Origin: a virus
Lineage: Duplodnaviria > Heunggongvirae > Uroviricota > Caudoviricetes
Reading direction: 5' to 3' (one strand)
IMG/VR virus record: IMGVR_UViG_3300033994_001334
Coordinates: 64,001-78,391 of that record
DNA: 14,391 bases
The notes under the pieces are model-generated. The model did not search any database. It saw only the letters and a program-made list of their open reading frames with translations, and was not told where the DNA came from. This document shows positions 7,170 through 14,391 of this stretch, in pieces (within the stretch, counting starts at the first letter, position 1; each line of letters begins with the position of its first letter). Made by a program: the position numbers and the translations under genes.

Positions 7170-7574
7170 TTATATTCCATACCACTCCAAGATTTCTTCA
7201 CCCGATTTAATATCCCGAAGTGTTTTACCAAAACCATCCACGTTTTGATTTTCTTTATATGGATATGAGGAGTTACAAAAGGATGATGAATGAACAAGAT
7301 AATTTAACCCATTAAAGAGTCTTATTATTTTATAATCGGGGTCATCGTCAATGAAATTCATATTAATCATTTTCAATACCGGTGCGGGAAGTTCATTTAA
7401 TCTATTTTTCGGTATTCTATAAATTCCAGTACCATTTGACCATTTTGTGAATATGTAAGTATTTTTGGGAATATCAACAATTGCAAATACACCAATACCA
7501 TGAACCTCTGATAAACGAAGTTCGGTTAGGATATTATGTTTTAAATGGTAAATTACCTCATCCGTTATATCCAT
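7170..7574 (-). CDS. SET-domain protein (putative protein lysine methyltransferase)
   Basis: SEVHGIGVFA (motif I), YLVHSS..CN (variant of the NHS motif), RDIKSGEEILEWY (terminal GEE..Y motif). Confidence 0.8.
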   Translation of the reverse strand: MDITDEVIYHLKHNILTELRLSEVHGIGVFAIVDIPKNTYIFTKWSNGTGIYRIPKNRLNELPAPVLKMINMNFIDDDPDYKIIRLFNGLNYLVHSSSFCNSSYPYKENQNVDGFGKTLRDIKSGEEILEWYGI

Positions 7575-7743
7575 TTACAATATACTTTTTTACATCATTA
7601 CTATGGATATTAACGAATGTACCATTTGCTCTTTTAAATGATACATATATTTCTCCGTATGAGGTTACATAAGTTTGTATTGGTACCATATCAATACCGT
7701 GAAAAATAAACTTCAGTTCTTCAATTTTTGTTGAGTCTCTCAT
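7558..7743 (-). CDS. Small hypothetical protein
   Basis: 61 aa; motif at 7760-7767; overlaps the SET gene start by 17 nt. Confidence 0.7.
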   Translation of the reverse strand: MRDSTKIEELKFIFHGIDMVPIQTYVTSYGEIYVSFKRANGTFVNIHSNDVKKYIVNGYNG

Positions 7744-7759
7744 TTTATATTCGATAATT

Positions 7760-7767
7760 TATAAATA
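7760..7767 (-). promoter_or_regulatory. TATTTAT upstream motif
   Basis: Sense TATTTATA, 16 nt before ATG 7743. Confidence 0.6.
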
Positions 7768-7768
7768 C

Positions 7769-8302
7769 CTACAAATTCTTAAATTGTTTAAATCTGTAGT
7801 TGAGGACAGCATTAAACCCGAATCCAGGATTAATTGCATAATTGTAGTTTGTTGTAAGCCTAAATTGGAGATTATTACTTTGGGATAATTTTATTCCCTT
7901 ATAATAAAAAGATAATGACATTTGTGGAACAAAATCGGTTTTTGGATAATAACCCATTAAACCAATAGGAGATATTACCACATCAAATTTTTCAAATCTA
8001 CGACCGAAATCAAGTTGGGTTGTTAATATTGAATTTGGAATTTGTCTTTCTTGCATTTGACCTTGTCGTGACATAACCAAACAATAAGAACCATTAAAGT
8101 GAATTATTAATGGGTATTTATTATCGGTGATTTCTATTTCACCCGTCATCCCTATAATGGGACTACGTAAGAAACTGTTTACTCCACCCATACTTGATAA
8201 CCATACCTTTCTGTACGTTGTGTCTAAAGGGGTCGGTTGACCACTTATTGGTGATACACCAATAATAAGGAATGTGATAAGTAAAAGAACTGAAAGTTTC
8301 AT
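7769..8302 (-). CDS. Secreted protein, candidate small outer-membrane beta-barrel
   Basis: Signal peptide MKLSVLLLITFLIIGVSPISG followed by Q; alternating hydrophobic strands; terminal GFGFNAVLNYRF. Start may be 8308. Confidence 0.6.
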   Translation of the reverse strand: MKLSVLLLITFLIIGVSPISGQPTPLDTTYRKVWLSSMGGVNSFLRSPIIGMTGEIEITDNKYPLIIHFNGSYCLVMSRQGQMQERQIPNSILTTQLDFGRRFEKFDVVISPIGLMGYYPKTDFVPQMSLSFYYKGIKLSQSNNLQFRLTTNYNYAINPGFGFNAVLNYRFKQFKNL

Positions 8303-8305
8303 ATA

Positions 8306-8313
8306 CATAAATA
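8306..8313 (-). promoter_or_regulatory. TATTTAT upstream motif
   Basis: Sense TATTTATG, 3 nt before ATG 8302. Confidence 0.55.
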
Positions 8314-8340
8314 TCTAATGGACATCCTATTTTATATAAA

Positions 8341-8463
8341 TTTTCCCAAAAATTTTTATTTTGAAATCGACCACCTTTTCCCTTTTTTAGGTTTTTTCCC
8401 AAAAATTTTTATTTTTTATATAGGGGGTCTTTCAGATAAATCGACTTTTTCCAAAAAAATTCT
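8341..8463. repeat. Phased A/T-tract direct repeats
   Basis: TTTTCCCAAAAATTTTTATTTT at 8341-8362 and 8394-8415; degenerate third copy from 8447. Period 53 bp. Confidence 0.75.
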
Positions 8464-8512
8464 GGAAAAATTTCAGTTACGGCATTGTCCCCCCTATACA
8501 GACATCGAAATA

Positions 8513-8570
8513 GGGGGTATATAAGGGGGGATACGGGAGGGGGGGTATCATAGGGGGGTGGTGTAGGGGG
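8513..8570 (+). other. G-tract run fitting the G-quadruplex pattern
   Basis: G5-N7-G6-N4-G3-N1-G7-N7-G6-N7-G5. Confidence 0.75.
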
Positions 8571-8574
8571 TAGG

Positions 8575-8594
8575 TTGCCCCTCTATAAGTTTTT
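8575..8594 (+). repeat. Intergenic module A, right arm
   Basis: TTGCCCCTCTATAAGTTTTT; a degenerate left arm may lie at about 8466-8484 (AAAAATTTCAGTTACGGCA). Confidence 0.65.
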
Positions 8595-8636
8595 CACCCG
8601 TCAGGTTCATCAGGGTTTCCCGTTGTGTTGGTATAG

Positions 8637-8702
8637 TGTGGATAACTTTATAGAAGAAATATAAAATAGTTCTTGTTATATTCAAAACTAATCTTATCTT
8701 TG
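8637..8702 (+). promoter_or_regulatory. DnaA box plus Bacteroidota-type sigma70 promoter (cassette 1)
   Basis: TGTGGATAA 8637-8645; TTG 8673-8675; TATCTTTG 8695-8702. Confidence 0.8.
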
Positions 8703-8737
8703 TACCCGTTGTAACAAACCAAACAACATTAAATAAA

Positions 8738-9307
8738 ATGACTACAATAGTAAAACAACAAGTAGAAGTAACACCAACTGAAATGGTGGAAATCCTTAAA
8801 GGAGTAGAGGGTAACCCTAATGTACCTTTCGTAAATTGTAAAATGAAAACATTATATAGTGATGTTTTAAAAACTTGTAAAAGTGACGGAACAATTAACC
8901 CATACTTTAAACAAATTTACAAAGTGAGTAGTAAGAATTACAAGTTAGTTACCAACTACGAACAAAGGGTAAAAAACAATTTAATTAAAGAGGGTAAAGA
9001 CCCCAATAGTTTTGTTGTCGAAAGTCCGAAAGGAAAAAAACATATTTCAAAATCGTGTTTAACCGATAAGGAAACCGAAACAAAACTATATGTTATGTTG
9101 GAGTGGTTTCCCGAAATTAAAGGAACAACTGAATACGAATTTGAGGGTAATAGTATTGACAAACAAATTTTTGAAAAGTGGATTTCAACAAGTGAGAGTT
9201 CAAATAAAAAACAAGGTTTGGATAGAGAGATACACCCAATAACCCCACTAATCTCAAATATAATATCAATTTCAGTTAATGGAATGGTTTATATCATTAA
9301 GGAATAA
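8738..9307 (+). CDS. Phage hypothetical protein (cassette 1)
   Basis: 189-aa ORF between a promoter and a terminator; no Ala. Confidence 0.9.
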   Translation: MTTIVKQQVEVTPTEMVEILKGVEGNPNVPFVNCKMKTLYSDVLKTCKSDGTINPYFKQIYKVSSKNYKLVTNYEQRVKNNLIKEGKDPNSFVVESPKGKKHISKSCLTDKETETKLYVMLEWFPEIKGTTEYEFEGNSIDKQIFEKWISTSESSNKKQGLDREIHPITPLISNIISISVNGMVYIIKE

Positions 9308-9326
9308 AAACCCCTTAAAACTAATT

Positions 9327-9360
9327 AAAACACTATCCGAAAGGGTGGTGTTTTTTTTTT
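9327..9360 (+). terminator. Intrinsic terminator, cassette 1
   Basis: AACACTATCC-GAAA-GGGTGGTGTT plus T-run. Confidence 0.85.
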
Positions 9361-9411
9361 GTCCAAAAATTTGTGGATTGAATTTTTTTGGTGGGACCAT
9401 GTTCCATCCGT

Positions 9412-9473
9412 AAAATAGAGGGGCAATTTTGTTTTTGGTGGGTTCTATTTGGGTTTGCCCCTTTAAAAGTTTT
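9412..9473. repeat. Intergenic module B, inverted arms
   Basis: AAAATAGAGGGGCAA (9412-9426), 28-nt spacer, TTGCCCCTTTAAAAGTTTT (9455-9473). Confidence 0.8.
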
Positions 9474-9516
9474 CATGGTCCCTGAGTTTCCGACTCAAGT
9501 CCTTCAGTTCACATTG

Positions 9517-9563
9517 TGTGGAAAACTTTATCTTGTTTTATAATAGTATCCATGTTATATTTG
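9517..9563 (+). promoter_or_regulatory. DnaA box plus promoter (cassette 2)
   Basis: TGTGGAAAA 9517-9525 (fits TTWTNCACA); TTG 9533-9535; TATATTTG 9556-9563. Confidence 0.8.
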
Positions 9564-9586
9564 TATTCAGTTAAACCAAACATATT

Positions 9587-9880
9587 ATGTATACTAAAGA
9601 AGAAATTCAACACAACCTCTCCACTAATCCTAAATGGATTGAAAGAAGTCTTATCGTATTGTACCAAAGACAAACCCAAGATGAACAACAAGTCGGTGGT
9701 ACTTTTGTTCAAAACAATGTAGGTTTTAATAGTTCCGATAGTCGTTACCTCTCTTATTGTAGTAGGTGGTTACTACAAGGTAAACACCTTGACAATGGAC
9801 ACCTTGAAAAGTGTGGTGGGAAATTAAAGAAGTATTGGAAACAGATTGAAAGTATAATCAAGGAAAAGGGGAACAATTAG
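9587..9880 (+). CDS. Phage hypothetical protein with RQTxDE and NNVGFN motifs (cassette 2)
   Basis: 97 aa between promoter and terminator. Motif pattern recalled from widespread phage hypotheticals; function unknown. Confidence 0.88.
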   Translation: MYTKEEIQHNLSTNPKWIERSLIVLYQRQTQDEQQVGGTFVQNNVGFNSSDSRYLSYCSRWLLQGKHLDNGHLEKCGGKLKKYWKQIESIIKEKGNN

Positions 9881-9895
9881 TTCTCCTTTTTTTTT
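9864..9895 (+). terminator. Intrinsic terminator, cassette 2
   Basis: AAAAGGGGAAC-AATTA-GTTCTCCTTTT plus T-run; overlaps the stop codon. Confidence 0.8.
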
Positions 9896-9933
9896 GACCA
9901 CAGATTTTAGAATACCACCCGGTCTTCCATCCG

Positions 9934-9998
9934 GAAAATAATGGGGCAATCGGTATGACAAATGTTGGTATCGGTATGACATTTGCCGACATAAATCC
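9934..9998. repeat. Intergenic module C, inverted arms
   Basis: GAAAATAATGGGGCAA (9934-9949), 33-nt spacer holding two TCGGTATGACA, TTGCCGACATAAATCC (9983-9998). Confidence 0.8.
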
Positions 9999-10019
9999 AA
10001 ACCGTGACGACAGGTGAAG

Positions 10020-10086
10020 GTAACATTACTAAATAAAAAAAAATAAAAAGAAATTCTTGTTTTATTCAGAAATTATATTACCTTTG
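10020..10086 (+). promoter_or_regulatory. A-tract class promoter (cassette 3)
   Basis: GTAACATTAC 10020-10029; A-tract; TTG 10057-10059; TACCTTTG 10079-10086. Confidence 0.8.
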
Positions 10087-10120
10087 TGTCGTTGTAATAA
10101 ACCAAACAACATTTAAAAAA

Positions 10121-10324
10121 ATGAAAAATCTATTTATCTACTTAACATTTATTGTTATTACTTTCTTTTCGGTGTATGGTGCATTTACTATGGACATACC
10201 AACCGACAACCAAATTGGGATGTTATTTTTTGGTTCATTGTCTTTTAGTGTTTTGTTAATGGTAACCTTTTATGATATTCGTATGTTTATCAAAAATAGA
10301 AAACCAAGACCTCAAACTTTCTAA
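10121..10324 (+). CDS. Small two-TM membrane protein (cassette 3)
   Basis: 67 aa, two hydrophobic stretches, basic C-terminal tail. Confidence 0.8.
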   Translation: MKNLFIYLTFIVITFFSVYGAFTMDIPTDNQIGMLFFGSLSFSVLLMVTFYDIRMFIKNRKPRPQTF

Positions 10325-10343
10325 TCTTTCATTTTGTATCTTA

Positions 10344-10374
10344 AAGACCTCATCAGAAATGGTGGGGTTTTTTT
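10344..10374 (+). terminator. Intrinsic terminator, cassette 3
   Basis: ACCTCATCA-GAAA-TGGTGGGGT plus T-run. Confidence 0.8.
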
Positions 10375-10416
10375 GTGTCTGAAGTTTTTAGAATACCACC
10401 CGTGTCCTTCCATCCG

Positions 10417-10596
10417 GAAATTAAATCGGCAAAATCCATATCTGAAGATTTAGTAACATTACTTTCTGTGTCCATGAAAAAGATTTATCGGGGCAACGAC
10501 ACCAAATTATGTGGGGGTTTAATGTGAAATTGCCCCATTAAAAGTTTTCCTCTCAGGGTTCACGGTCAGGACGAATTGTGGTGGATTCGTATGACA
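10417..10596. repeat. Intergenic module D
   Basis: Left arms 10417-10432 and 10481-10496, right arm 10530-10548, CGTATGACA 10588-10596. Confidence 0.8.
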
Positions 10597-10602
10597 AAAA
10601 AA

Positions 10603-10648
10603 TGTGGATAACTTTTTCTTGTTTGTAAAAGTATTTGTATTATATTTG
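10603..10648 (+). promoter_or_regulatory. DnaA box plus promoter (cassette 4)
   Basis: TGTGGATAA 10603-10611; TTG 10619-10621; TATATTTG 10641-10648. Confidence 0.8.
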
Positions 10649-10670
10649 TACTCGTTAAACCAAACATAAA

Positions 10671-10853
10671 ATGAAAGATTTATTAATTACAAAAGTCGTA
10701 ATACTCATAGTAGTATTATTATTAATCACCCTCACAAGTTGTGGGACTTATCAAGTCGTGGGAAGTACAACCTATAACAAAGAGTATAGGACTGATTCAA
10801 CAATCACAAGAGTTTATTATGATTCAACAACAATTAGAATGAGTAAAAATTAA
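10671..10853 (+). CDS. Small putative lipoprotein (cassette 4)
   Basis: Hydrophobic VVILIVVLLLITL followed by lipobox LTSC(24)GTY. Confidence 0.75.
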   Translation: MKDLLITKVVILIVVLLLITLTSCGTYQVVGSTTYNKEYRTDSTITRVYYDSTTIRMSKN

Positions 10854-10857
10854 AATT

Positions 10858-11043
10858 ATGAAAACAATATTTGTATTATTCGTGGATAATAAACCAAAAG
10901 GTATCCTATCTGAAATTCAGTTGGAAAATTATAGTGGTCGTAGTTGGTGGACGACATTTAAAAAAATGTTAGTTCCAACCGAAAAAATAGATGACCTAAA
11001 CATTGGTAACGTAGAAAAATACCTTACCTTATACGGAATTTAA
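10858..11043 (+). CDS. Small hypothetical protein (cassette 4, second gene)
   Basis: 61 aa, starts 4 nt after the previous stop, followed by a terminator. Confidence 0.75.
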   Translation: MKTIFVLFVDNKPKGILSEIQLENYSGRSWWTTFKKMLVPTEKIDDLNIGNVEKYLTLYGI

Positions 11044-11063
11044 TTGAAGTTGGTTTGTGAATT

Positions 11064-11094
11064 AAGGGGTAGAGAAATCTACTCCTTTTTTTTT
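11064..11094 (+). terminator. Intrinsic terminator, cassette 4
   Basis: AAGGGGTAGA-GAAA-TCTACTCCTT plus T-run. Confidence 0.85.
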
Positions 11095-11154
11095 GTTTAA
11101 AAAATTTGGGTTCGGAAGAAAAGTTCGGATGTTTGTGGGGACAGGTCCGTCGGG

Positions 11155-11258
11155 GAAATTAACTCGGCAAACCAGGTAAATACGTTGGGTACGTATGACA
11201 CTTGCCCCATTAAAATTTTTCGTCCGAAGGTTCTGAGATGGTCGGGATTCGTATGACA
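11155..11258. repeat. Intergenic module E
   Basis: Left arm 11155-11170, CGTATGACA 11192-11200, right arm 11202-11220, CGTATGACA 11250-11258. Confidence 0.8.
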
Positions 11259-11262
11259 AGAA

Positions 11263-11308
11263 TGTGGATAACTTTATTTGTTTTATATTCTAAACTAACC
11301 TACATTTG
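11263..11308 (+). promoter_or_regulatory. DnaA box plus promoter (cassette 5)
   Basis: TGTGGATAA 11263-11271; TTTG 11277-11280; TACATTTG 11301-11308. Confidence 0.82.
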
Positions 11309-11333
11309 TATCGTTAAACTAAAAAAATATAAA

Positions 11334-12122
11334 ATGAAAATTAAAGAAGAGTCGTTACTTACCATTGTAAATGAAAAAAACTACATTAGTCATCACGTTG
11401 GTCATATAATGAAATCAATGACCATAGACAAAGTGAATGAAAATGTCTACGTTAGTAAAATGAAATTATTTGAAACTAATGTAAATTGGAGGAGGTTAGT
11501 ATTTTCTGAAAAATCAAAGAAAAATTTAGAAAATTACACAATACCAAAAGATATTCGTGTTGAGGTGTTGAGGTCGTTACCTAATAGAAACGACATCATT
11601 TTAATTGATGAATATAATTGTATAAAATATATAAAAACCGATAATGAATTAATAGTATCATTTCATTATACAAATAAAACACATTTAAATGATTATGGTG
11701 CACCCGTACTTTATATGTTTTATTTTCAAGTTAATTTGATAACCGGTAAAATTTCATCCGACCAAATGGATTTTGAAAGTAATAAAATGGTGGATTATGA
11801 AATGTTAATCGAAAAGTTTTATAGTCGTTTTTTGGTGGTGATTACATATTTGGAATTGACCGAAGTAACATTAAATGTAATTGAAGGTGGTAAATCGTTT
11901 GGTACTTGGAATAGTGGTAAGATTAAAAACAAAACAAAAAATAGAATTATAATGGTTAATACAAATTGGAATGTAGAAACCATTAGTCTAAATAGTTTTT
12001 CAGTTCGTGGACATTGGAGATTACAACCTTGTGGTGTTGGTAGAAGTCAGTTTAAATATGTTTACATTAAACCATATGAAAAAGGTTTGATTAGAAGATT
12101 ACCACAAAAAGAATTGGTTTAA
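11334..12122 (+). CDS. Phage protein with C-terminal VRGHWR motif, 262 aa (cassette 5)
   Basis: Start moved from 11238 to 11334 because the track extension runs through the promoter. C-terminal SVRGHWRLQPCG...YIKPYEKG. Confidence 0.88.
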   Translation: MKIKEESLLTIVNEKNYISHHVGHIMKSMTIDKVNENVYVSKMKLFETNVNWRRLVFSEKSKKNLENYTIPKDIRVEVLRSLPNRNDIILIDEYNCIKYIKTDNELIVSFHYTNKTHLNDYGAPVLYMFYFQVNLITGKISSDQMDFESNKMVDYEMLIEKFYSRFLVVITYLELTEVTLNVIEGGKSFGTWNSGKIKNKTKNRIIMVNTNWNVETISLNSFSVRGHWRLQPCGVGRSQFKYVYIKPYEKGLIRRLPQKELV

Positions 12123-12127
12123 CAACG

Positions 12128-12161
12128 AAAATTTCCTCAACGAAAGTTGGGGATTTTTTTT
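12128..12161 (+). terminator. Intrinsic terminator, cassette 5
   Basis: TCCTCAAC-GAAA-GTTGGGGA plus T-run. Confidence 0.85.
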
Positions 12162-12205
12162 GCGCTAACGCTGCTCTGGTTTGCGCAACAGCTGCTGGTT
12201 CAGGT

Positions 12206-12289
12206 GGAATTAGTTCGGCAACGTATGACACTTGCCCCATTAAAATTTTTCCTCTCAGGGTTCGGGAATCAGGGTGGACTCGTATGACA
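12206..12289. repeat. Intergenic module F
   Basis: Left arm 12206-12221, CGTATGACA 12222-12230, right arm 12232-12250, CGTATGACA 12281-12289. Confidence 0.8.
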
Positions 12290-12293
12290 ATAA

Positions 12294-12339
12294 TGTGGAT
12301 AACTTTATTTTTTTTATAATGGTATATGTGGTATATTTG
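12294..12339 (+). promoter_or_regulatory. DnaA box plus promoter (cassette 6)
   Basis: TGTGGATAA 12294-12302; -33 element degenerate; TATATTTG 12332-12339. Confidence 0.75.
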
Positions 12340-12367
12340 TATCTCAAACCAAAAATAAATAAATCAA

Positions 12368-12583
12368 ATGAAAGTAGTATCATCTCGTATCACCGACCAA
12401 CCAAAAAGTTTCTTTGACCCAATCCCACAAGTGTTCGTAACTTTAGAAAATGGGGAAGAACAATTCTTATTCGATTACTATCCCGATGAAATCAGTTTCA
12501 CACCTAATGAGTTCGTGGGTTTGACACTTGATGAGTGTAGACACTTGAAGTTTGTAAAAGATAAAAGATACCTAACAAGTTGA
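12368..12583 (+). CDS. Small phage hypothetical protein with YPDEISF motif (cassette 6)
   Basis: 71 aa directly behind a promoter. Confidence 0.85.
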   Translation: MKVVSSRITDQPKSFFDPIPQVFVTLENGEEQFLFDYYPDEISFTPNEFVGLTLDECRHLKFVKDKRYLTS

Positions 12584-12614
12584 TGTCATGGAAAAACTAT
12601 CGTGTAAAGAAAGA

Positions 12615-12695
12615 ATGAAAGAGTTATTGGGAATACTAATTGTTTTACCGATACTAATTTATTACGGAATCCGATTTTTAATAAGGGGTAGATAA
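12615..12695 (+). CDS. Possible 26-aa single-TM peptide (35 aa if started at 12588)
   Basis: Manual translation MKELLGILIVLPILIYYGIRFLIRGR; fills the space up to the terminator. Confidence 0.45.
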   Translation: MKELLGILIVLPILIYYGIRFLIRGR

Positions 12696-12713
12696 TTCTA
12701 CTCCTTTTTTTTT
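12683..12713 (+). terminator. Intrinsic terminator, cassette 6
   Basis: AAGGGGTAGA-TAAT-TCTACTCCTT plus T-run; same stem as cassette 4. Confidence 0.85.
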
Positions 12714-12763
12714 GTCCAAAAATTTGTGGTTTGAAAAAAATCGAGGAGATGTTGGGTGAATCC

Positions 12764-12865
12764 GAATTTAACTCGGCAATCGTATAACACCTTATACTCG
12801 TATGACGATTGCCCCATTAAAAATTTTCGGGGACGAGCTCTGAGATGGTCTGAATTCGTATGACA
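12764..12865. repeat. Intergenic module G
   Basis: Left arm 12764-12779, CGTATAACA 12781-12789, CGTATGACG 12799-12807, right arm 12809-12827, CGTATGACA 12857-12865. Confidence 0.8.
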
Positions 12866-12869
12866 AGAA

Positions 12870-12915
12870 TGTGGATAACTTTATTTGTTTTATATTCCAA
12901 ACTAAACTACATTTG
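12870..12915 (+). promoter_or_regulatory. DnaA box plus promoter (cassette 7)
   Basis: TGTGGATAA 12870-12878; TTTG 12884-12887; TACATTTG 12908-12915. Confidence 0.82.
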
Positions 12916-12948
12916 TATCGTTGTAATAAACCAAACAACACCAATTAT

Positions 12949-13395
12949 ATGAAATTCAATACAAAATCATTAGACCACAAATTCTATGGTAAGACCATTA
13001 GAACATTTACTGAATTAGAAAGTAAATTATTTGAACTTGACCTATTAATGTCAATGACCTTTATGGTTAGTAAAATGGGTGAAGAAACCAAAGAATTAAA
13101 AGAAACCTTAAACGATATGGGTAAGGTTCGTTTTGTTATTTCTTGTGAACTTTTGGGTTACTCTGAAACTCACATTTCAATCATTCCATTTGAAACAATA
13201 ATGGAAAAAATTGAAGAGAGTGATTATGGGTTCACTAAATTTTTACAAGACCACCAAGAAAATTCTAAATTAATTCCAAAAGAAGATGTGGAGATGATTG
13301 AAAAGTTGTTAAGGAACGAACTTTCAAAGAAAGAAGATGTAGTCGGTCAGATGTCTGATAGTGTTAGACAACAACCGAGTTATATGTGGAACTAA
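12949..13395 (+). CDS. Helical hypothetical protein, 148 aa (cassette 7)
   Basis: Start moved from 12871 to 12949 because the track extension runs through the promoter. Confidence 0.85.
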   Translation: MKFNTKSLDHKFYGKTIRTFTELESKLFELDLLMSMTFMVSKMGEETKELKETLNDMGKVRFVISCELLGYSETHISIIPFETIMEKIEESDYGFTKFLQDHQENSKLIPKEDVEMIEKLLRNELSKKEDVVGQMSDSVRQQPSYMWN

Positions 13396-13423
13396 TTTTG
13401 TCTATCATAGTTGTTCTATGACT

Positions 13424-13453
13424 AACCCTCACCCGAAATGGTGGGGGTTTTTT
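13424..13453 (+). terminator. Intrinsic terminator, cassette 7
   Basis: AACCCTCACC-CGAAAT-GGTGGGGGTT plus T-run. Confidence 0.8.
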
Positions 13454-13492
13454 ATTTCCCGTATCTTGAGTCGGAGATGTTCGTCCCTTCCC

Positions 13493-13611
13493 AAAACTAA
13501 GTCGGCAACGTATGACACTTGAGTCGGGAATTCCGTCGTTACCGTCCGGGACAGATGAAATTAGGTTTGCAACGTATGACATTTGCCGAACTAATTTCCG
13601 GATTACGACGG
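13493..13611. repeat. Intergenic module H
   Basis: Left arms 13493-13508 and 13557-13572, CGTATGACA 13509-13517 and 13573-13581, right arm 13583-13598. Confidence 0.8.
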
Positions 13612-13623
13612 TTCTGAGAAAAA

Positions 13624-13685
13624 GTAACGTTACAAAAAAAAATAAAAAGAAATTCTTGTTTTATTCAGAAATTGTATTACCTTTG
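13624..13685 (+). promoter_or_regulatory. A-tract class promoter (cassette 8)
   Basis: GTAACGTTAC 13624-13633; A-tract; TTG 13656-13658; TACCTTTG 13678-13685. Confidence 0.8.
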
Positions 13686-13713
13686 TTCTTGTTAAACCAA
13701 TAGAAAAAATAAA

Positions 13714-14076
13714 ATGAAAAAAGGAATTTTAATCGATGTTCATAACAGAACAATCACAGAAGTAGAAGTAACCAAAGATGAAAATGGTTCTCAATTACAA
13801 TCAATGTACAATCACATTAAATGTGGAATTGTGGAGTGTGTTGGTTTTGATGAAAAAAATGATGTGTGGGTTGATGAAGAGGGGTTATTAACTTTAACAC
13901 CCGATTCGATGTTTTTTAAATTTGAGGGGTATCCCGATTTTTTATGTGGTAATGGTTTGGTTATGGGTTTTGATAATGAAACGGGAGAAAGTGTTGATAC
14001 GACCTTAACTATTGATGAAGTAAAATCAATGGTAGAATTTCGTACACTAAACGAAGTAAGAAGACAGTTAGTTTAA
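13714..14076 (+). CDS. DUF3846-like protein (cassette 8)
   Basis: L..MY.HI.C..VE.V.....D.WVDEEGL...LCGNGLV matches my recollection of the DUF3846 (N/D)EEG pattern. Confidence 0.65.
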   Translation: MKKGILIDVHNRTITEVEVTKDENGSQLQSMYNHIKCGIVECVGFDEKNDVWVDEEGLLTLTPDSMFFKFEGYPDFLCGNGLVMGFDNETGESVDTTLTIDEVKSMVEFRTLNEVRRQLV

Positions 14077-14095
14077 TGTAATGTTTGGTTCATGG

Positions 14096-14128
14096 AAATT
14101 TCCTCACCGAAAGGTGGGGATTTTTTTT
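14096..14128 (+). terminator. Intrinsic terminator, cassette 8
   Basis: TCCTCACC-GAAA-GGTGGGGA plus T-run; near twin of cassette 5. Confidence 0.85.
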
Positions 14129-14171
14129 GCGCTAAAATTACTGGTGTTTGCGCATGGTGACTAGTCAGAAT

Positions 14172-14250
14172 GGAATTAGTTCGGCAACATTTAAATATGG
14201 TGTTGTTGCCCTTTTAATTTTCCTGGAGGACCTGTCGACTTCGACTCAAG
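14172..14250. repeat. Intergenic module I
   Basis: Left arm 14172-14187 (identical to module F), right arm TTGCCCTTTTAATTTTC from 14206, CGACTCAAG 14242-14250. Confidence 0.78.
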
Positions 14251-14267
14251 ATTCTATGTAAATATAA

Positions 14268-14313
14268 TGTGGATAACTTTTATTTTTTTATACCGAAAAT
14301 TAAACTACATTTG
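14268..14313 (+). promoter_or_regulatory. DnaA box plus promoter (cassette 9)
   Basis: TGTGGATAA 14268-14276; -33 element degenerate; TACATTTG 14306-14313. Confidence 0.75.
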
Positions 14314-14347
14314 TATCGTTGTAATAAACCAAACAACATTTAATTTT

Positions 14348-14391
14348 ATGAACATAATTAAAACATTAGAGTATTCAATGGACTACTCACA
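14348..14391 (+). CDS. 5' fragment of the cassette 9 gene
   Basis: ATG after the conserved leader; MNIIKTLEYSMDYS is open to the window end. Confidence 0.7.
   Translation, partial: MNIIKTLEYSMDYS

Follow-up and report, generated by a model that had tools for sequence, protein, structure and literature searches.

A lake phage of Bacteroidota with a probable PeSL-like array of self-contained early transcription units

The stretch of viral DNA analysed here, called the window, has a length of 14,391 nucleotides and covers positions 64,001 to 78,391 of the IMG/VR record IMGVR_UViG_3300033994_001334. From position 8575 onwards it carries what is probably a PeSL-like array of autonomous early transcription units of a large (jumbo-class) lake phage of Bacteroidota, with Flavobacterium-type bacteria as its hosts.

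The modules between the genes follow a common order. An intrinsic terminator is followed by imperfect 16-20-bp inverted arms, which often flank the motif GTATGAC, and by a spacer of 29-30 nt; then come a DnaA box or a palindrome with an A-tract, the promoter, the leader and one or two small unrelated genes. This multi-motif grammar, repeated nine times, had been described by a sequence-only reading and is confirmed by intergenic alignment and motif counts. The genome-wide count proposed there gave nine copies: an nhmmer profile of the nine segments from right arm to ATG has exactly nine matches on the whole 78,391-bp contig (E 1e-12 to 1e-33), all of them on the + strand at genome positions 72575-78350, which corresponds to 8575-14350 of the window. 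Nine modules are a lower bound, with the tenth gene cut by the contig end, and the 78-kb fragment represents only about 25% of the genome according to CheckV. The gaps without genes measure 240-346 bp for gaps 2-9 and 429 bp for gap 1, so that of the range of 240-390 bp given earlier the lower end holds and the upper end does not, the largest internal gap being 346 bp. The parts are as follows.

8309-8574, no strand: divergent control region between the leftward genes and the array, with A/T-rich TTTTCCCAAAAATTTTT-type repeats and a G-run block (about 8480-8574)
8575-8737, + strand: module 1, with right arm TTGCCCC, spacer, DnaA box (8637-8645), -7 element (8695) and AAACCAAAC in the leader, without left arm
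8738-9307, + strand: cassette gene F1, 189 aa, unknown fold family
9308-9586, + strand: module 2, with terminator (9327-9354), arms (9422 and 9455), box TGTGGAAAA (9517) and -7 element (9556)
9587-9880, + strand: cassette gene F5, 97 aa, phrog_21015 (unknown function)
9881-10120, + strand: module 3, box-less class, with arms flanking two GTATGAC, a terminator overlapping the stop codon, palindrome GTAACATTAC (10020), A-tract and -7 element (10079)
10121-10324, + strand: cassette gene, 67 aa, hydrophobic
10325-10670, + strand: module 4, with terminator (10343-10372), two left arms, palindrome (10453), right arm (10530), a spacer 11 nt longer than in the other modules, GTATGAC (10589), box (10603) and -7 element (10641)
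10671-11043, + strand: two-gene cassette, 60 aa (10671-10853) and 61 aa (10858-11043)
11044-11333, + strand: module 5, with terminator (11064-11087), arms (11166 and 11202) flanking GTATGAC (11193), proximal GTATGAC (11251), box (11263) and -7 element (11301)
11334-12122, + strand: cassette gene, 262 aa, AcrVA2-like fold (candidate)
12123-12367, + strand: module 6, the type example, with terminator (12134-12153) followed by a T-run, left arm (12206-12221), GTATGAC (12223-12229), right arm (12232-12251), variable 30-nt spacer (12252-12281), second GTATGAC (12282-12288), DnaA box (12294-12302), -7 element (12332-12339) and a leader running to the ATG at 12368
12368-12695, + strand: two-gene cassette, F8 of 71 aa (12368-12583) and a 35-aa ORF (12588-12695)
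12696-12948, + strand: module 7, with terminator (12683-12706), arms (12775 and 12809), GTATGAC (12800 and 12858), box (12870) and -7 element (12908)
12949-13395, + strand: cassette gene, 148 aa
13396-13713, + strand: module 8, box-less class, with terminator (13424-13449), two units of arm and GTATGAC, palindrome GTAACGTTAC (13624), A-tract and -7 element (13678)
13714-14076, + strand: cassette gene F6, 120 aa, DUF3846 (Pfam: PF12957, E 1e-12)
14077-14347, + strand: module 9, with terminator (14101-14120), arms (14183 and 14206) without GTATGAC, box (14268) and -7 element (14306)
14348-14391, + strand: cassette gene F7, start only, cut by the contig end

Seven intrinsic terminators, each a hairpin with a T-run, were found 3' of genes by scan, and the eighth, which overlaps a stop codon (9866-9895), was read by eye; module 1, located in the divergent control region, is without one. 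The right arm TTGCC is found in all nine modules and the left arm, GGCAA or TGCAA, in eight; the arms are 16-20 nt long and 75-82% complementary. TGTGGAWAAC has seven sites, all on the + strand, where 0.13 are expected, and 0 of 200 shuffles reached seven. GTATGAC has 11 + strand sites within the array versus 1.3 expected window-wide. Genome-wide, seven of the eight TGTGGAWAA sites and all eight CGTATGACA sites lie inside the array. In modules 3 and 8, whose promoters are 98% identical, GTAACRTTAC with an A-tract replaces the DnaA box; this palindrome (general form GTAAYRTTAC) occurs three times in the window versus 0.16 expected. The spacer has a fixed length, with one variant 11 nt longer, and a sequence unrelated between modules (mean ungapped identity 0.28). 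The promoter TTG-N19/20-TAnnTTTG is exact in seven of nine modules and the leader motif AAACCAAAC in six of nine leaders, and the leaders are strain-specific. TAnnTTTG is a Bacteroidetes-specific promoter consensus (PMC10309648), and by this match the module promoters appear to be Bacteroidota-type promoters with -33 TTG and -7 TAnnTTTG.

In the mechanism that we propose, the terminator would close the upstream transcript and transcription would restart at a host sigma-A-type promoter (-33 TTG, -7 TAnnTTTG), giving a leader without Shine-Dalgarno sequence. About 110 bp 5' of the promoter would form a nucleoprotein control region of fixed geometry, in which the inverted arms may be bound by a sequence-specific factor whose site drifts between phages, with GTATGAC boxes alongside. 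DnaA boxes and the palindrome with A-tract are alternatives and thus indicate two promoter classes. Promoters of class one, with one or two consensus DnaA boxes, would most likely be the target of host DnaA, the replication initiator, which would serve as upstream activator or sense the growth state, and those of class two would use the palindrome and A-tract in place of boxes. Promoter consensus and fixed geometry together suggest co-regulation and early timing. We infer promoter activity, the binding of DnaA and its sign, as well as the identity of the arm and GTATGAC binders.

In the window, five modules have 38 bp between box start and -7 start, one has 39 and one 58. Six modules have 61-62 bp from right arm to box and one has 73, and the right arm precedes the -7 element by 95-101 bp in seven modules, by 111 bp in another and by 120 bp in the remaining one. 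Six contigs of relatives have the box 37-39, 48-49, 58-59 or 70 bp upstream of the -7 element. These box-to-promoter distances come in helical steps, so that the box stays on one helix face, and they are kept while the arms drift between phages. The box itself is an optional sub-module: relatives L079 and L080 have the same architecture with zero DnaA boxes, and in L002 nine of 20 promoters are without one.

It is conceivable, though unlikely, that the TGTGGATAA boxes are not read by host DnaA and instead serve a phage-encoded factor or belong to an extended upstream promoter element, resembling the DnaA consensus by chance. The box sits at the position of an UP-like element (about -50 to -42), an A-tract takes its place in the box-less promoters, and the relatives just mentioned manage without it. 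This reading has to be set against the box 9-mer, which is a perfect DnaA consensus or the TTTTCCACA variant in all seven window cases, and against the relatives in which the box forms a classical direct pair with 11-bp spacing. The exact double-box 21-mer is found on 69 unrelated IMG/VR contigs with a GC content of 0.30-0.66, nearly always as a single, origin-like tandem cluster with 11-bp phasing, a distribution that speaks for a universal reader protein of the host. Furthermore, a search of four phage fragments for a DnaA-like DNA-binding domain found none, and the 78-kb fragment (about 25% of the genome) has no DnaA gene. The box appears to be a generic DnaA site.

The relatives are lake metagenome assemblies, in which repeated junctions can produce chimeric joins, and the contig L098 has an odd 83-nt duplicate at its start; the main rearrangements nevertheless recur, in the independent assemblies L100 and L101 and as an inversion in both L075 and L077. 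The layout is kept among relatives with different arm sequences (L002, L080, L079 and L077). Strains whose shared genes have 83-94% nucleotide identity differ in cassette content and order. Between the 189-aa gene (90% nucleotide identity to the window) and the DUF3846 gene (83%), L074 has three cassettes and the window six, all unrelated, and the homology ends just 3' of the terminator. L098 has two additional cassettes, and its F1 cassette (window 8637-9359, 91%) has moved to after DUF3846. The 148-aa gene precedes the 262-aa gene in L100/L101, the reverse of the window's order, with which L099 agrees. The control-region block is conserved at 70-87% in L002, L073, L075, L077 and L100/L101; in L075 and L077, F1 is inverted and with it the relative orientation of block and 189-aa gene. 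The gene order of L002 is not colinear with the window, and L002 has two F1 and two F7 paralogues; some order differences could reflect duplication and then differential loss instead of movement. Breakpoints between close strains lie in the leader beside the ATG, about 30-50 nt past the terminator, at the DnaA box and in the interval from terminator to arms. A fixed order without breakpoints in modules had been named beforehand as the outcome that would speak against reshuffling. The relatives vary in order and content, with breakpoints within modules and with one cassette translocated and one inverted, and reshuffling survives.

The mean identity of the upstream 80 nt is 0.69-0.73 within genomes versus 0.49-0.72 between orthologous genes, and two changes common to the four long leaders of L098 set them apart from all four in the window. 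Promoter-leader segments are thus homogenised within genomes, which implies that junctions recombine with each other. The junction is present as 9 to >20 direct repeats with inverted arms, so that it would lend itself to homologous recombination and gene conversion. Recombination between junctions would delete, duplicate, replace, translocate and occasionally invert whole cassettes, and the accessory gene set would consequently turn over fast while the regulatory frame stays.

That the repeats are purely regulatory and the junctions bystanders of the illegitimate recombination that is general in phage accessory regions seems quite improbable to us. Hyperplastic early regions are known in many phages and part of the breakpoints are not placeable to the nucleotide, but every mapped homology end between close strains falls within a junction. 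Moreover, sub-parts of junctions are mosaics themselves: the L074 junction before DUF3846 has the terminator and left arm of window module 6 (96-100%) fused to the promoter of module 8 (83%).

A dedicated integron- or shufflon-like system, in which a phage recombinase acts at the arms to excise, insert and invert cassettes, is very improbable. The arms are inverted repeats around a variable spacer of 10-80 bp and change in concert per genome, one L074 module has the segment between the arms exactly inverted (TGTCATAC twice, versus GTATGACA twice in other modules), and an entire cassette is inverted in L075 and L077. However, the breakpoints between close strains are scattered over several positions and none lies at the arms themselves, the fixed and helically phased distance from right arm to promoter fits a regulatory site, and each of the cassettes comes with a promoter. 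RecA-type, tyrosine and serine recombinases are absent from the 78-kb fragment of the incomplete genome (about 25% by CheckV). The plug-and-play machinery suggested by the sequence-only reading is thus not borne out, and ordinary homologous recombination between the repeated junctions, as for PeSLs, would be the simpler mechanism.

We give hardly any weight to the modules being mainly replication elements, either DnaA-dependent transcription-activated origins or a datA-like sink titrating host DnaA to halt host replication, as which they could pass with consensus boxes (7 to 18 per array) adjoining A/T-rich tracts and strong promoters and with an origin-like look of both the nearby G-rich and A/T-repeat block and the 48-bp tandem repeats found in L002. 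The one or two boxes of a module keep to distances from the -7 element that differ by steps of about 10.5 bp, as predicted for contact with RNA polymerase and unneeded for an unwinding element or sink, the other 69 phage contigs have their boxes in a single cluster, and the box-less modules have an otherwise identical layout.

The closest known system is that of the PeSL (promoter-early stem-loop) cassettes, which T4-type phages carry in their hyperplastic regions (Arbiol et al. 2010, PMC2839356; Comeau et al. 2014, PMC4122927). The comparison was already drawn in the sequence-only reading and is apt: in both, composite junctions of terminator and host-type early promoter are repeated before small ORFans clustered in a variable region, and indels, replacements and reordering between close relatives break in these junctions. 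PeSLs are compact, with a sigma-70 promoter that is A/T-rich in its upstream part and has a stem-loop inside or beside it, whereas the junction of the array has 240-346 bp, with the terminator 150-250 bp upstream of a Bacteroidota -33/-7 promoter and with inverted arms, GTATGAC, spacer and DnaA boxes or palindrome in between, all helically phased. Host phylum and phage lineage differ as well. New compared to PeSLs is the phase-locked upstream region of roughly 110 bp with candidate host DnaA boxes.

Like the array, integron cassettes (attC) turn over and have an imperfect inverted repeat with variable centre behind each of their small, unrelated genes. Integron cassettes have no own promoter and require IntI and attI, whereas the units of the array have their own promoter and terminator; the arms are unlike the attC core, breakpoints lie away from them and no integrase is found on the 78-kb fragment.

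The host-takeover module of Bacillus phage SPO1, located in the terminal redundancy, also seems an apt analogue. Stewart et al. 1998 reportedly described 24 genes that are organised as 12 short operons, with terminators and strong early promoters of the sigma-A type. As predicted for the array, the module has dense rows of short early units, each promoted and terminated, with small anti-host proteins. SPO1 is not known to have DnaA boxes or an upstream region of several motifs common to its units.

DnaA stimulates lambda pR, and the early promoters of phi29 and Nf are said to have Spo0A boxes. As predicted for the array, sites of a global host regulator lie at phage early promoters, coupling phage development to the state of the host. 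In phi29 the sites are repressive and belong to a sporulation regulator, whereas the predicted DnaA boxes of the array are at activator-like phased positions and repeated at 7 to >11 promoters.

The accessory gene set appears to be at least partly anti-defence. This had been suggested earlier for the small genes and finds some support in the fold of the 262-aa protein and in the DUF3846, DUF4314 and DUF932 genes, which recur across the arrays of the window and its relatives. The 262-aa protein is an anti-CRISPR candidate with an AcrVA2-like fold, with structure matches to 7ci2/7ci1 (Z 7.3 and 6.9; next best 3.7) and a faint match to AcrVA2-like (Pfam: PF26125).

Comparing the cassette genes of the window with one another gave no common family, and family searches with the 67-aa hydrophobic protein (10121-10324) and the 148-aa protein (12949-13395) found none. 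F1 has 43 metagenomic homologues with 50-95% identity. F5 has homologues in L002, L075 and L077, F8 in L002 (16808-17062) and the 148-aa gene in L098 and L100/L101, and the 61-aa gene (10858-11043) is present again in L099 and L100/L101. Full-length homologues of F7 are found in L074 (1456-1797), L002 and L098.

The nine gene-free stretches that separate the small genes at the right end of the window align to one consensus module. A profile hidden Markov model (HMM) of the module core, which runs from the right arm of its inverted repeats to the ATG, matches the 78-kb contig exactly nine times, always on the plus strand and always between window positions 8575 and 14350. This contig-wide count bears out the sequence-only reading, which had described an array of nine repeated modules. 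All nine are part of one 5.8-kb array of small genes, mostly without known family. The parts of the module, from 5' to 3', are:

Hairpin and T-run terminator, absent from the first module; seven by scan, an eighth over the stop codon at 9866-9895
Left arm, type GAAATTAnnTCGGCAA
GTATGAC, often
Right arm, TTGCCCCATTAAAAnTTTTC
Spacer
Second GTATGAC, often
TGTGGAWAA, the DnaA-type box, in seven modules; GTAACRTTAC and an A-tract in modules 3 and 8
Predicted promoter, with the -7 element TAnnTTTG in 9/9 junctions and TTG 19-20 nt upstream in 7/9
Leader, AAACCAAAC in six
One or two small genes (the cassette)

Terminators are found in eight of the nine junctions, 150-250 bp upstream of the promoter, and the arms, boxes and spacer are positioned in between. 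The element TAnnTTTG is the Bacteroidetes-specific promoter consensus (PMC10309648). The motif counts of the module far exceed chance, with seven TGTGGAWAAC found versus 0.13 expected, three copies of the palindrome GTAACRTTAC versus 0.16 expected and 12 GTATGAC in the window versus 1.3 expected, 11 of them on the plus strand inside the array. No Rfam family matched in the array at E-values up to 0.1. We infer that the cassettes are co-regulated and expressed early.

The window is the terminal 14.4 kb of one viral contig of 78,391 bp with 32% GC and an estimated completeness of about 25% (CheckV). The contig is open, without terminal repeat and with ORFs running off both ends. Genes are on the minus strand left of about position 8300 and on the plus strand right of it, where the GC skew also flips sign, and the array takes up the entire rightward arm of the window. 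Since the contig end falls inside a tenth gene, the array may be longer than seen. One of the leftward genes encodes a 134-aa protein (7170-7574, minus strand) with a SET lysine methyltransferase domain (Pfam: PF00856, E-value 1e-6); its neighbours are otherwise without family. Searches of a phage collection by megablast, blastn and tblastn gave no public match for the DNA. Of the sampled words of the array, 60-95% recur in 20 metagenome runs on lake water or fresh water, which belong to 20 studies between 2016 and 2024 and indicate that the phage lineage is widespread and persistent; the public runs listed for the phage include no RNA run.

The contexts of relatives were fetched via F1, the 189-aa first cassette gene, which has 43 metagenomic homologues. 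The sequence-only reading had further proposed that the cassettes are reshuffled, and this is what the relatives show: cassette order and content are not fixed, as the contigs L074, L098, L100/L101, L075/L077 and L002 all differ from the window. The breakpoints of indels, replacements and rearrangements between these close relatives and the window fall in the junctions. In L074, F1 has 90% nucleotide identity to the window and the DUF3846 gene (120 aa) with its promoter 83%, and between these two genes there are three cassettes versus six in the window, with zero genes in common. The homology starts about 10 nt upstream of the F1 ATG and stops about 30-50 nt past the F1 terminator. The L074 junction before the DUF3846 gene is a mosaic of the terminator and left arm of window module 6 (96-100%) and the promoter of module 8 (83%), and in one L074 module the inter-arm segment is exactly inverted.

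L098 is colinear with the window from the gene of a 262-aa protein to the DUF3846 gene (83-94%), with two cassettes added. The F1 cassette of L098 (window 8637-9359, from the box to just past the terminator, 91%) is positioned after the DUF3846 gene and not beside the G-rich block of the divergent region. In the independent assemblies L100 and L101, a 148-aa gene precedes the 262-aa gene, opposite to the window, whose gene order is confirmed by L099. L075 and L077 have the F1 cassette in opposite orientation both to the G-rich block and to the remaining array. L002 has shared families in different order (F1/F5, F8/F6 and F7/F6, with F5 the 97-aa gene, F6 the DUF3846 gene, F7 the tenth, cut-off gene and F8 the 71-aa gene), with F1 and F7 each in two copies. 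The relatives all come from metagenome assemblies, where repeats can yield chimeras. Paralogues are present, so some order differences could reflect duplication and loss. Logan contigs from four lake metagenomes break at every junction; they contain many junction-junction joints with sides of only 20-38 nt, which may stem from co-occurring relatives or repeats and were therefore not counted for circles or rearrangements. L098 begins (1-195) with an identical 83-nt copy of the 262-aa gene start, then a second junction copy and the full gene; either the junction is duplicated in tandem or the assembly is wrong at a repeat.

The 80-nt upstream segments have a mean identity of 0.69-0.73 within a genome, above that of orthologous genes between genomes (for instance 0.56 between the F1 genes of L074 and the window). 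Moreover, all four long L098 leaders have two changes in common relative to all four of the window. Both observations indicate that junctions recombine with each other. The breakpoints are found at several different positions within the junction, and neither the DnaA and RecA families nor the tyrosine and serine recombinase families (Phage_integrase and Resolvase) have a match in the roughly 25% of the genome that the 78-kb fragment covers. With breakpoints dispersed and no recombinase nearby, we prefer ordinary homologous recombination and gene conversion among the repeats to a site-specific system dedicated to the cassettes. Homologous recombination between repeats was also proposed for the promoter-early stem-loop (PeSL) cassettes of T4-type phages (PMC2839356, PMC4122927).

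The cassette proteins are mostly without family, one being DUF3846, and the cassette genes of the window have no family in common among themselves. In the arrays of relatives we found DUF4314, DUF932, DUF1281_C, DUF6011, a methyltransferase and a weak ART-PolyVal match. Families of this sort are common in early-entering regions of phages and conjugative elements; a literature search on DUF3846, DUF932 and DUF4314 found nothing directly relevant. For the 262-aa protein (11334-12122, plus strand), the family counts more than 100 metagenomic proteins. Their neighbours vary from strain to strain, and many of these proteins carry a precomputed, only "faint" match to the AcrVA2-like family (Pfam: PF26125). 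Its structure model (pLDDT 83) was compared by VIA-align with the AcrVA2 crystal structures 7ci2 and 7ci1, giving a Z-score of 7.3 for 7ci2_A (rmsd 5.6, 194 residues aligned) and 6.9 for 7ci1_B, and the next best entry reached 3.7. Foldseek matches to AcrVA2 were weak (E-values 0.06-0.14), the local Pfam scan of the protein gave nothing, AcrVA2 was not retrieved by a profile search against PDB sequences and a search in viral contigs found no 262-aa homologue. Because of the weak Foldseek and negative local Pfam results, we call the protein a candidate AcrVA2-like protein in fold only. This predicted fold lends some support to the anti-defence content that the sequence-only reading had expected of the cassettes; for that content it is a hint, and most cassette proteins are without family.

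The geometry of the module is constrained, beyond mere inheritance. In the window, five modules have 38 bp from the box start to the -7 element and the other two with a box have 39 and 58 bp, and the distance from the right arm to the box is 61-62 bp in six modules and 73 bp in one. Over six contigs of the subclade, the box is 37-39, 48-49, 58-59 or 70 bp from the -7 element, in steps of about 10.5 bp. The spacer between the right arm and the box-proximal part is 29-30 nt, with a sole exception that is 11 nt longer, and its sequence in one module is unrelated to that in the others (mean ungapped identity 0.28). Protein contacts on one face of the DNA predict this pattern, a length that is fixed while the sequence varies freely and indels that amount to full helical turns, and the fixed, phased spacing points to a regulatory complex including RNA polymerase. 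The G+C content of the spacers (12252-12281 and equivalents) is much above that of the rest of the array, and a short word AGG(G)TTC is found near the start of several of them.

Among the relatives, L002 (65% protein identity) repeats the terminator, arms, boxes and promoter, with a leader of its own, in at least 20 units, and its arms are of the types TTTGTCTGGAA and TTCCAGACAAA, flanking GTATGAC. In L080, the arms AAATTTAATCTGCCC and GGGCAGATTAAATTT surround a GTTCCACGTGGAAC palindrome, followed by an A-tract and the promoter, without DnaA box. L077 and L079 have further versions of the arms and L036 has an intermediate arm, TTGTCTGGCAA. Both arms change together, genome by genome. Judged by these comparisons, the grammar of the module is old and its words change between phages.

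The left and right arms are asymmetric throughout (TCGGCAA versus TTGCCCC), with no compensatory change within copies. A hairpin or RNA reading of the arms was dropped for these reasons, and a sequence-specific protein that co-evolves with its sites fits better. The F1 model (pLDDT 85) had no match in the PDB, matched only uncharacterised AlphaFold DB clusters and gave no hint of arm binding, nor was there a usable match in the protein atlas. A first motif scan of IMG/VR gave a chance match (L001) as its sole result. The arm pattern was not found in viral contigs; in metagenomes, it was found in one true relative (L073) and one chance match (L072). In 185,579 prokaryote genomes, the pattern of arm and GTATGAC had 17 single matches over unrelated phyla, which is about chance, so neither a host regulon nor the host is identifiable from them. 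Mimicry of CRISPR repeats or Cas12a handles by the terminator stems was rejected by eye because the strand order of the stems is wrong.

The boxes follow the TTATNCACA consensus, six of them being TGTGGATAA and one TGTGGAAAA, all on the plus strand, and each is a perfect DnaA consensus or a one-base variant. L002 has a direct pair of boxes at 11-bp spacing at seven promoters and a single box at four. The 21-mer TGTGGATAACTTGTGGAAAAC, in which two DnaA boxes are 11 bp apart, has exact copies in 69 IMG/VR contigs (L003-L071) with a GC content of 0.30-0.66. Nearly all of these contigs have it inside one tandem cluster with two to six boxes in 11-bp phase, as at origins, and the cluster resembles an origin or DnaA-recruiting element that is widespread among phages. 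Near-identical flanks around the 21-mer are seen in a group of contigs of about 35 kb, all from one sample. A universal host protein is the best explanation for a box common to such unrelated phages, and the box is most simply read as a putative host DnaA site. Peculiar to this array is that the boxes are distributed over promoters, one or two at a time and in phase.

With the -7 element at about -12 to -5, the box spans about -50 to -42 in the window and is at about -60 and -71 in L002. At bacterial promoters in general, such positions are typical of upstream activators. The C-terminal domain of DnaA is not encoded on the four phage fragments searched, the 78-kb fragment and three relatives, which are only 17-27% complete, so the absence of DnaA, RecA and recombinase families says little. 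We consider it possible, if rather doubtful, that the early anti-defence promoters of a jumbo phage have the host replication initiator DnaA as their phase-locked upstream activator or sensor. DnaA would act in a nucleoprotein complex of about 110 bp, together with an inverted-arm factor that co-evolves with its sites and a reader of GTATGAC. Early expression would be tuned to the replication or growth state of the host, and the same junctions would drive cassette exchange. Host regulators at phage early promoters have precedents in the Spo0A boxes of phi29 and DnaA at lambda pR; a literature search on DnaA boxes at phage early promoters found nothing directly relevant.

The closest known system is the PeSL cassette. 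As in PeSLs, the repeated motif contains an early promoter consensus of the host sigma factor (predicted TAnnTTTG, 9/9 junctions), the modules are found in a variable region directly 5' of ORFans, and breakpoints between close relatives fall in the motifs. PeSL stem-loops are positioned within or adjoining the promoter (PMC2839356, PMC4122927), whereas such a compact motif of promoter and stem-loop is absent from the array, with its terminators 150-250 bp upstream. Furthermore, the array junctions are 240-346 bp long with at least four extra motifs in helical phase, and promoter type and lineage differ. The array works like PeSLs yet is outside the PeSL sequence family. Unlike integron cassettes with attC sites, which are promoterless under a common Pc, each array cassette has its own promoter, and no adjacent integrase match is found on the 78-kb fragment (about 25% of the genome). 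The SPO1 takeover module is a looser architectural analogue. The general kind, a PeSL-like array, is already known, and the new part is the phase-locked upstream region with DnaA boxes.

With these results, shuffling by regulatory cassettes of the PeSL type extends to jumbo phages of freshwater Bacteroidota, in a lineage that is uncultured and widespread. Translocation and inversion are visible between near-identical strains, which makes the array a natural system for watching the turnover of accessory or anti-defence genes. The junction is much richer than promoter and terminator, and its motifs hold helical register with free intervening sequence. A universal DnaA box at 38, 48-49, 58-59 or 70 bp from the -7 element raises the hypothesis of DnaA as a transcription factor of Bacteroidota phage early genes; to our knowledge, there has been very little work on how phages control transcription in this phylum. 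The array also flags candidate counter-defence genes, including the AcrVA2-like protein, and we know of few such genes in these hosts.

Two repeat regions beside the arrays were also noted. In L002, an iteron-like 48-bp unit with the right-arm word TTCCAGACAAAAT and an A-run is present in four to five tandem copies (7560-7810), which just precede the first full cassette of the L002 array. The divergent region of the window (8309-8574) contains repeated A/T boxes of the type TTTTCC(C)AAAAATTTTT, followed by a block of G5-7 runs with a consensus around TATAAGGGGGGATACGGGAGGGGGG. The G-run region is also found at L002:7060-7345, L073:1-80 (minus strand), L077:2290-2530 and L100:314-542, and the block is 70-87% conserved among relatives that otherwise share little here. 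Its possible functions are replication origin, packaging site or G-quadruplex control element. In L075 and L077, the block is found on the opposite side of the 189-aa gene, inverted.
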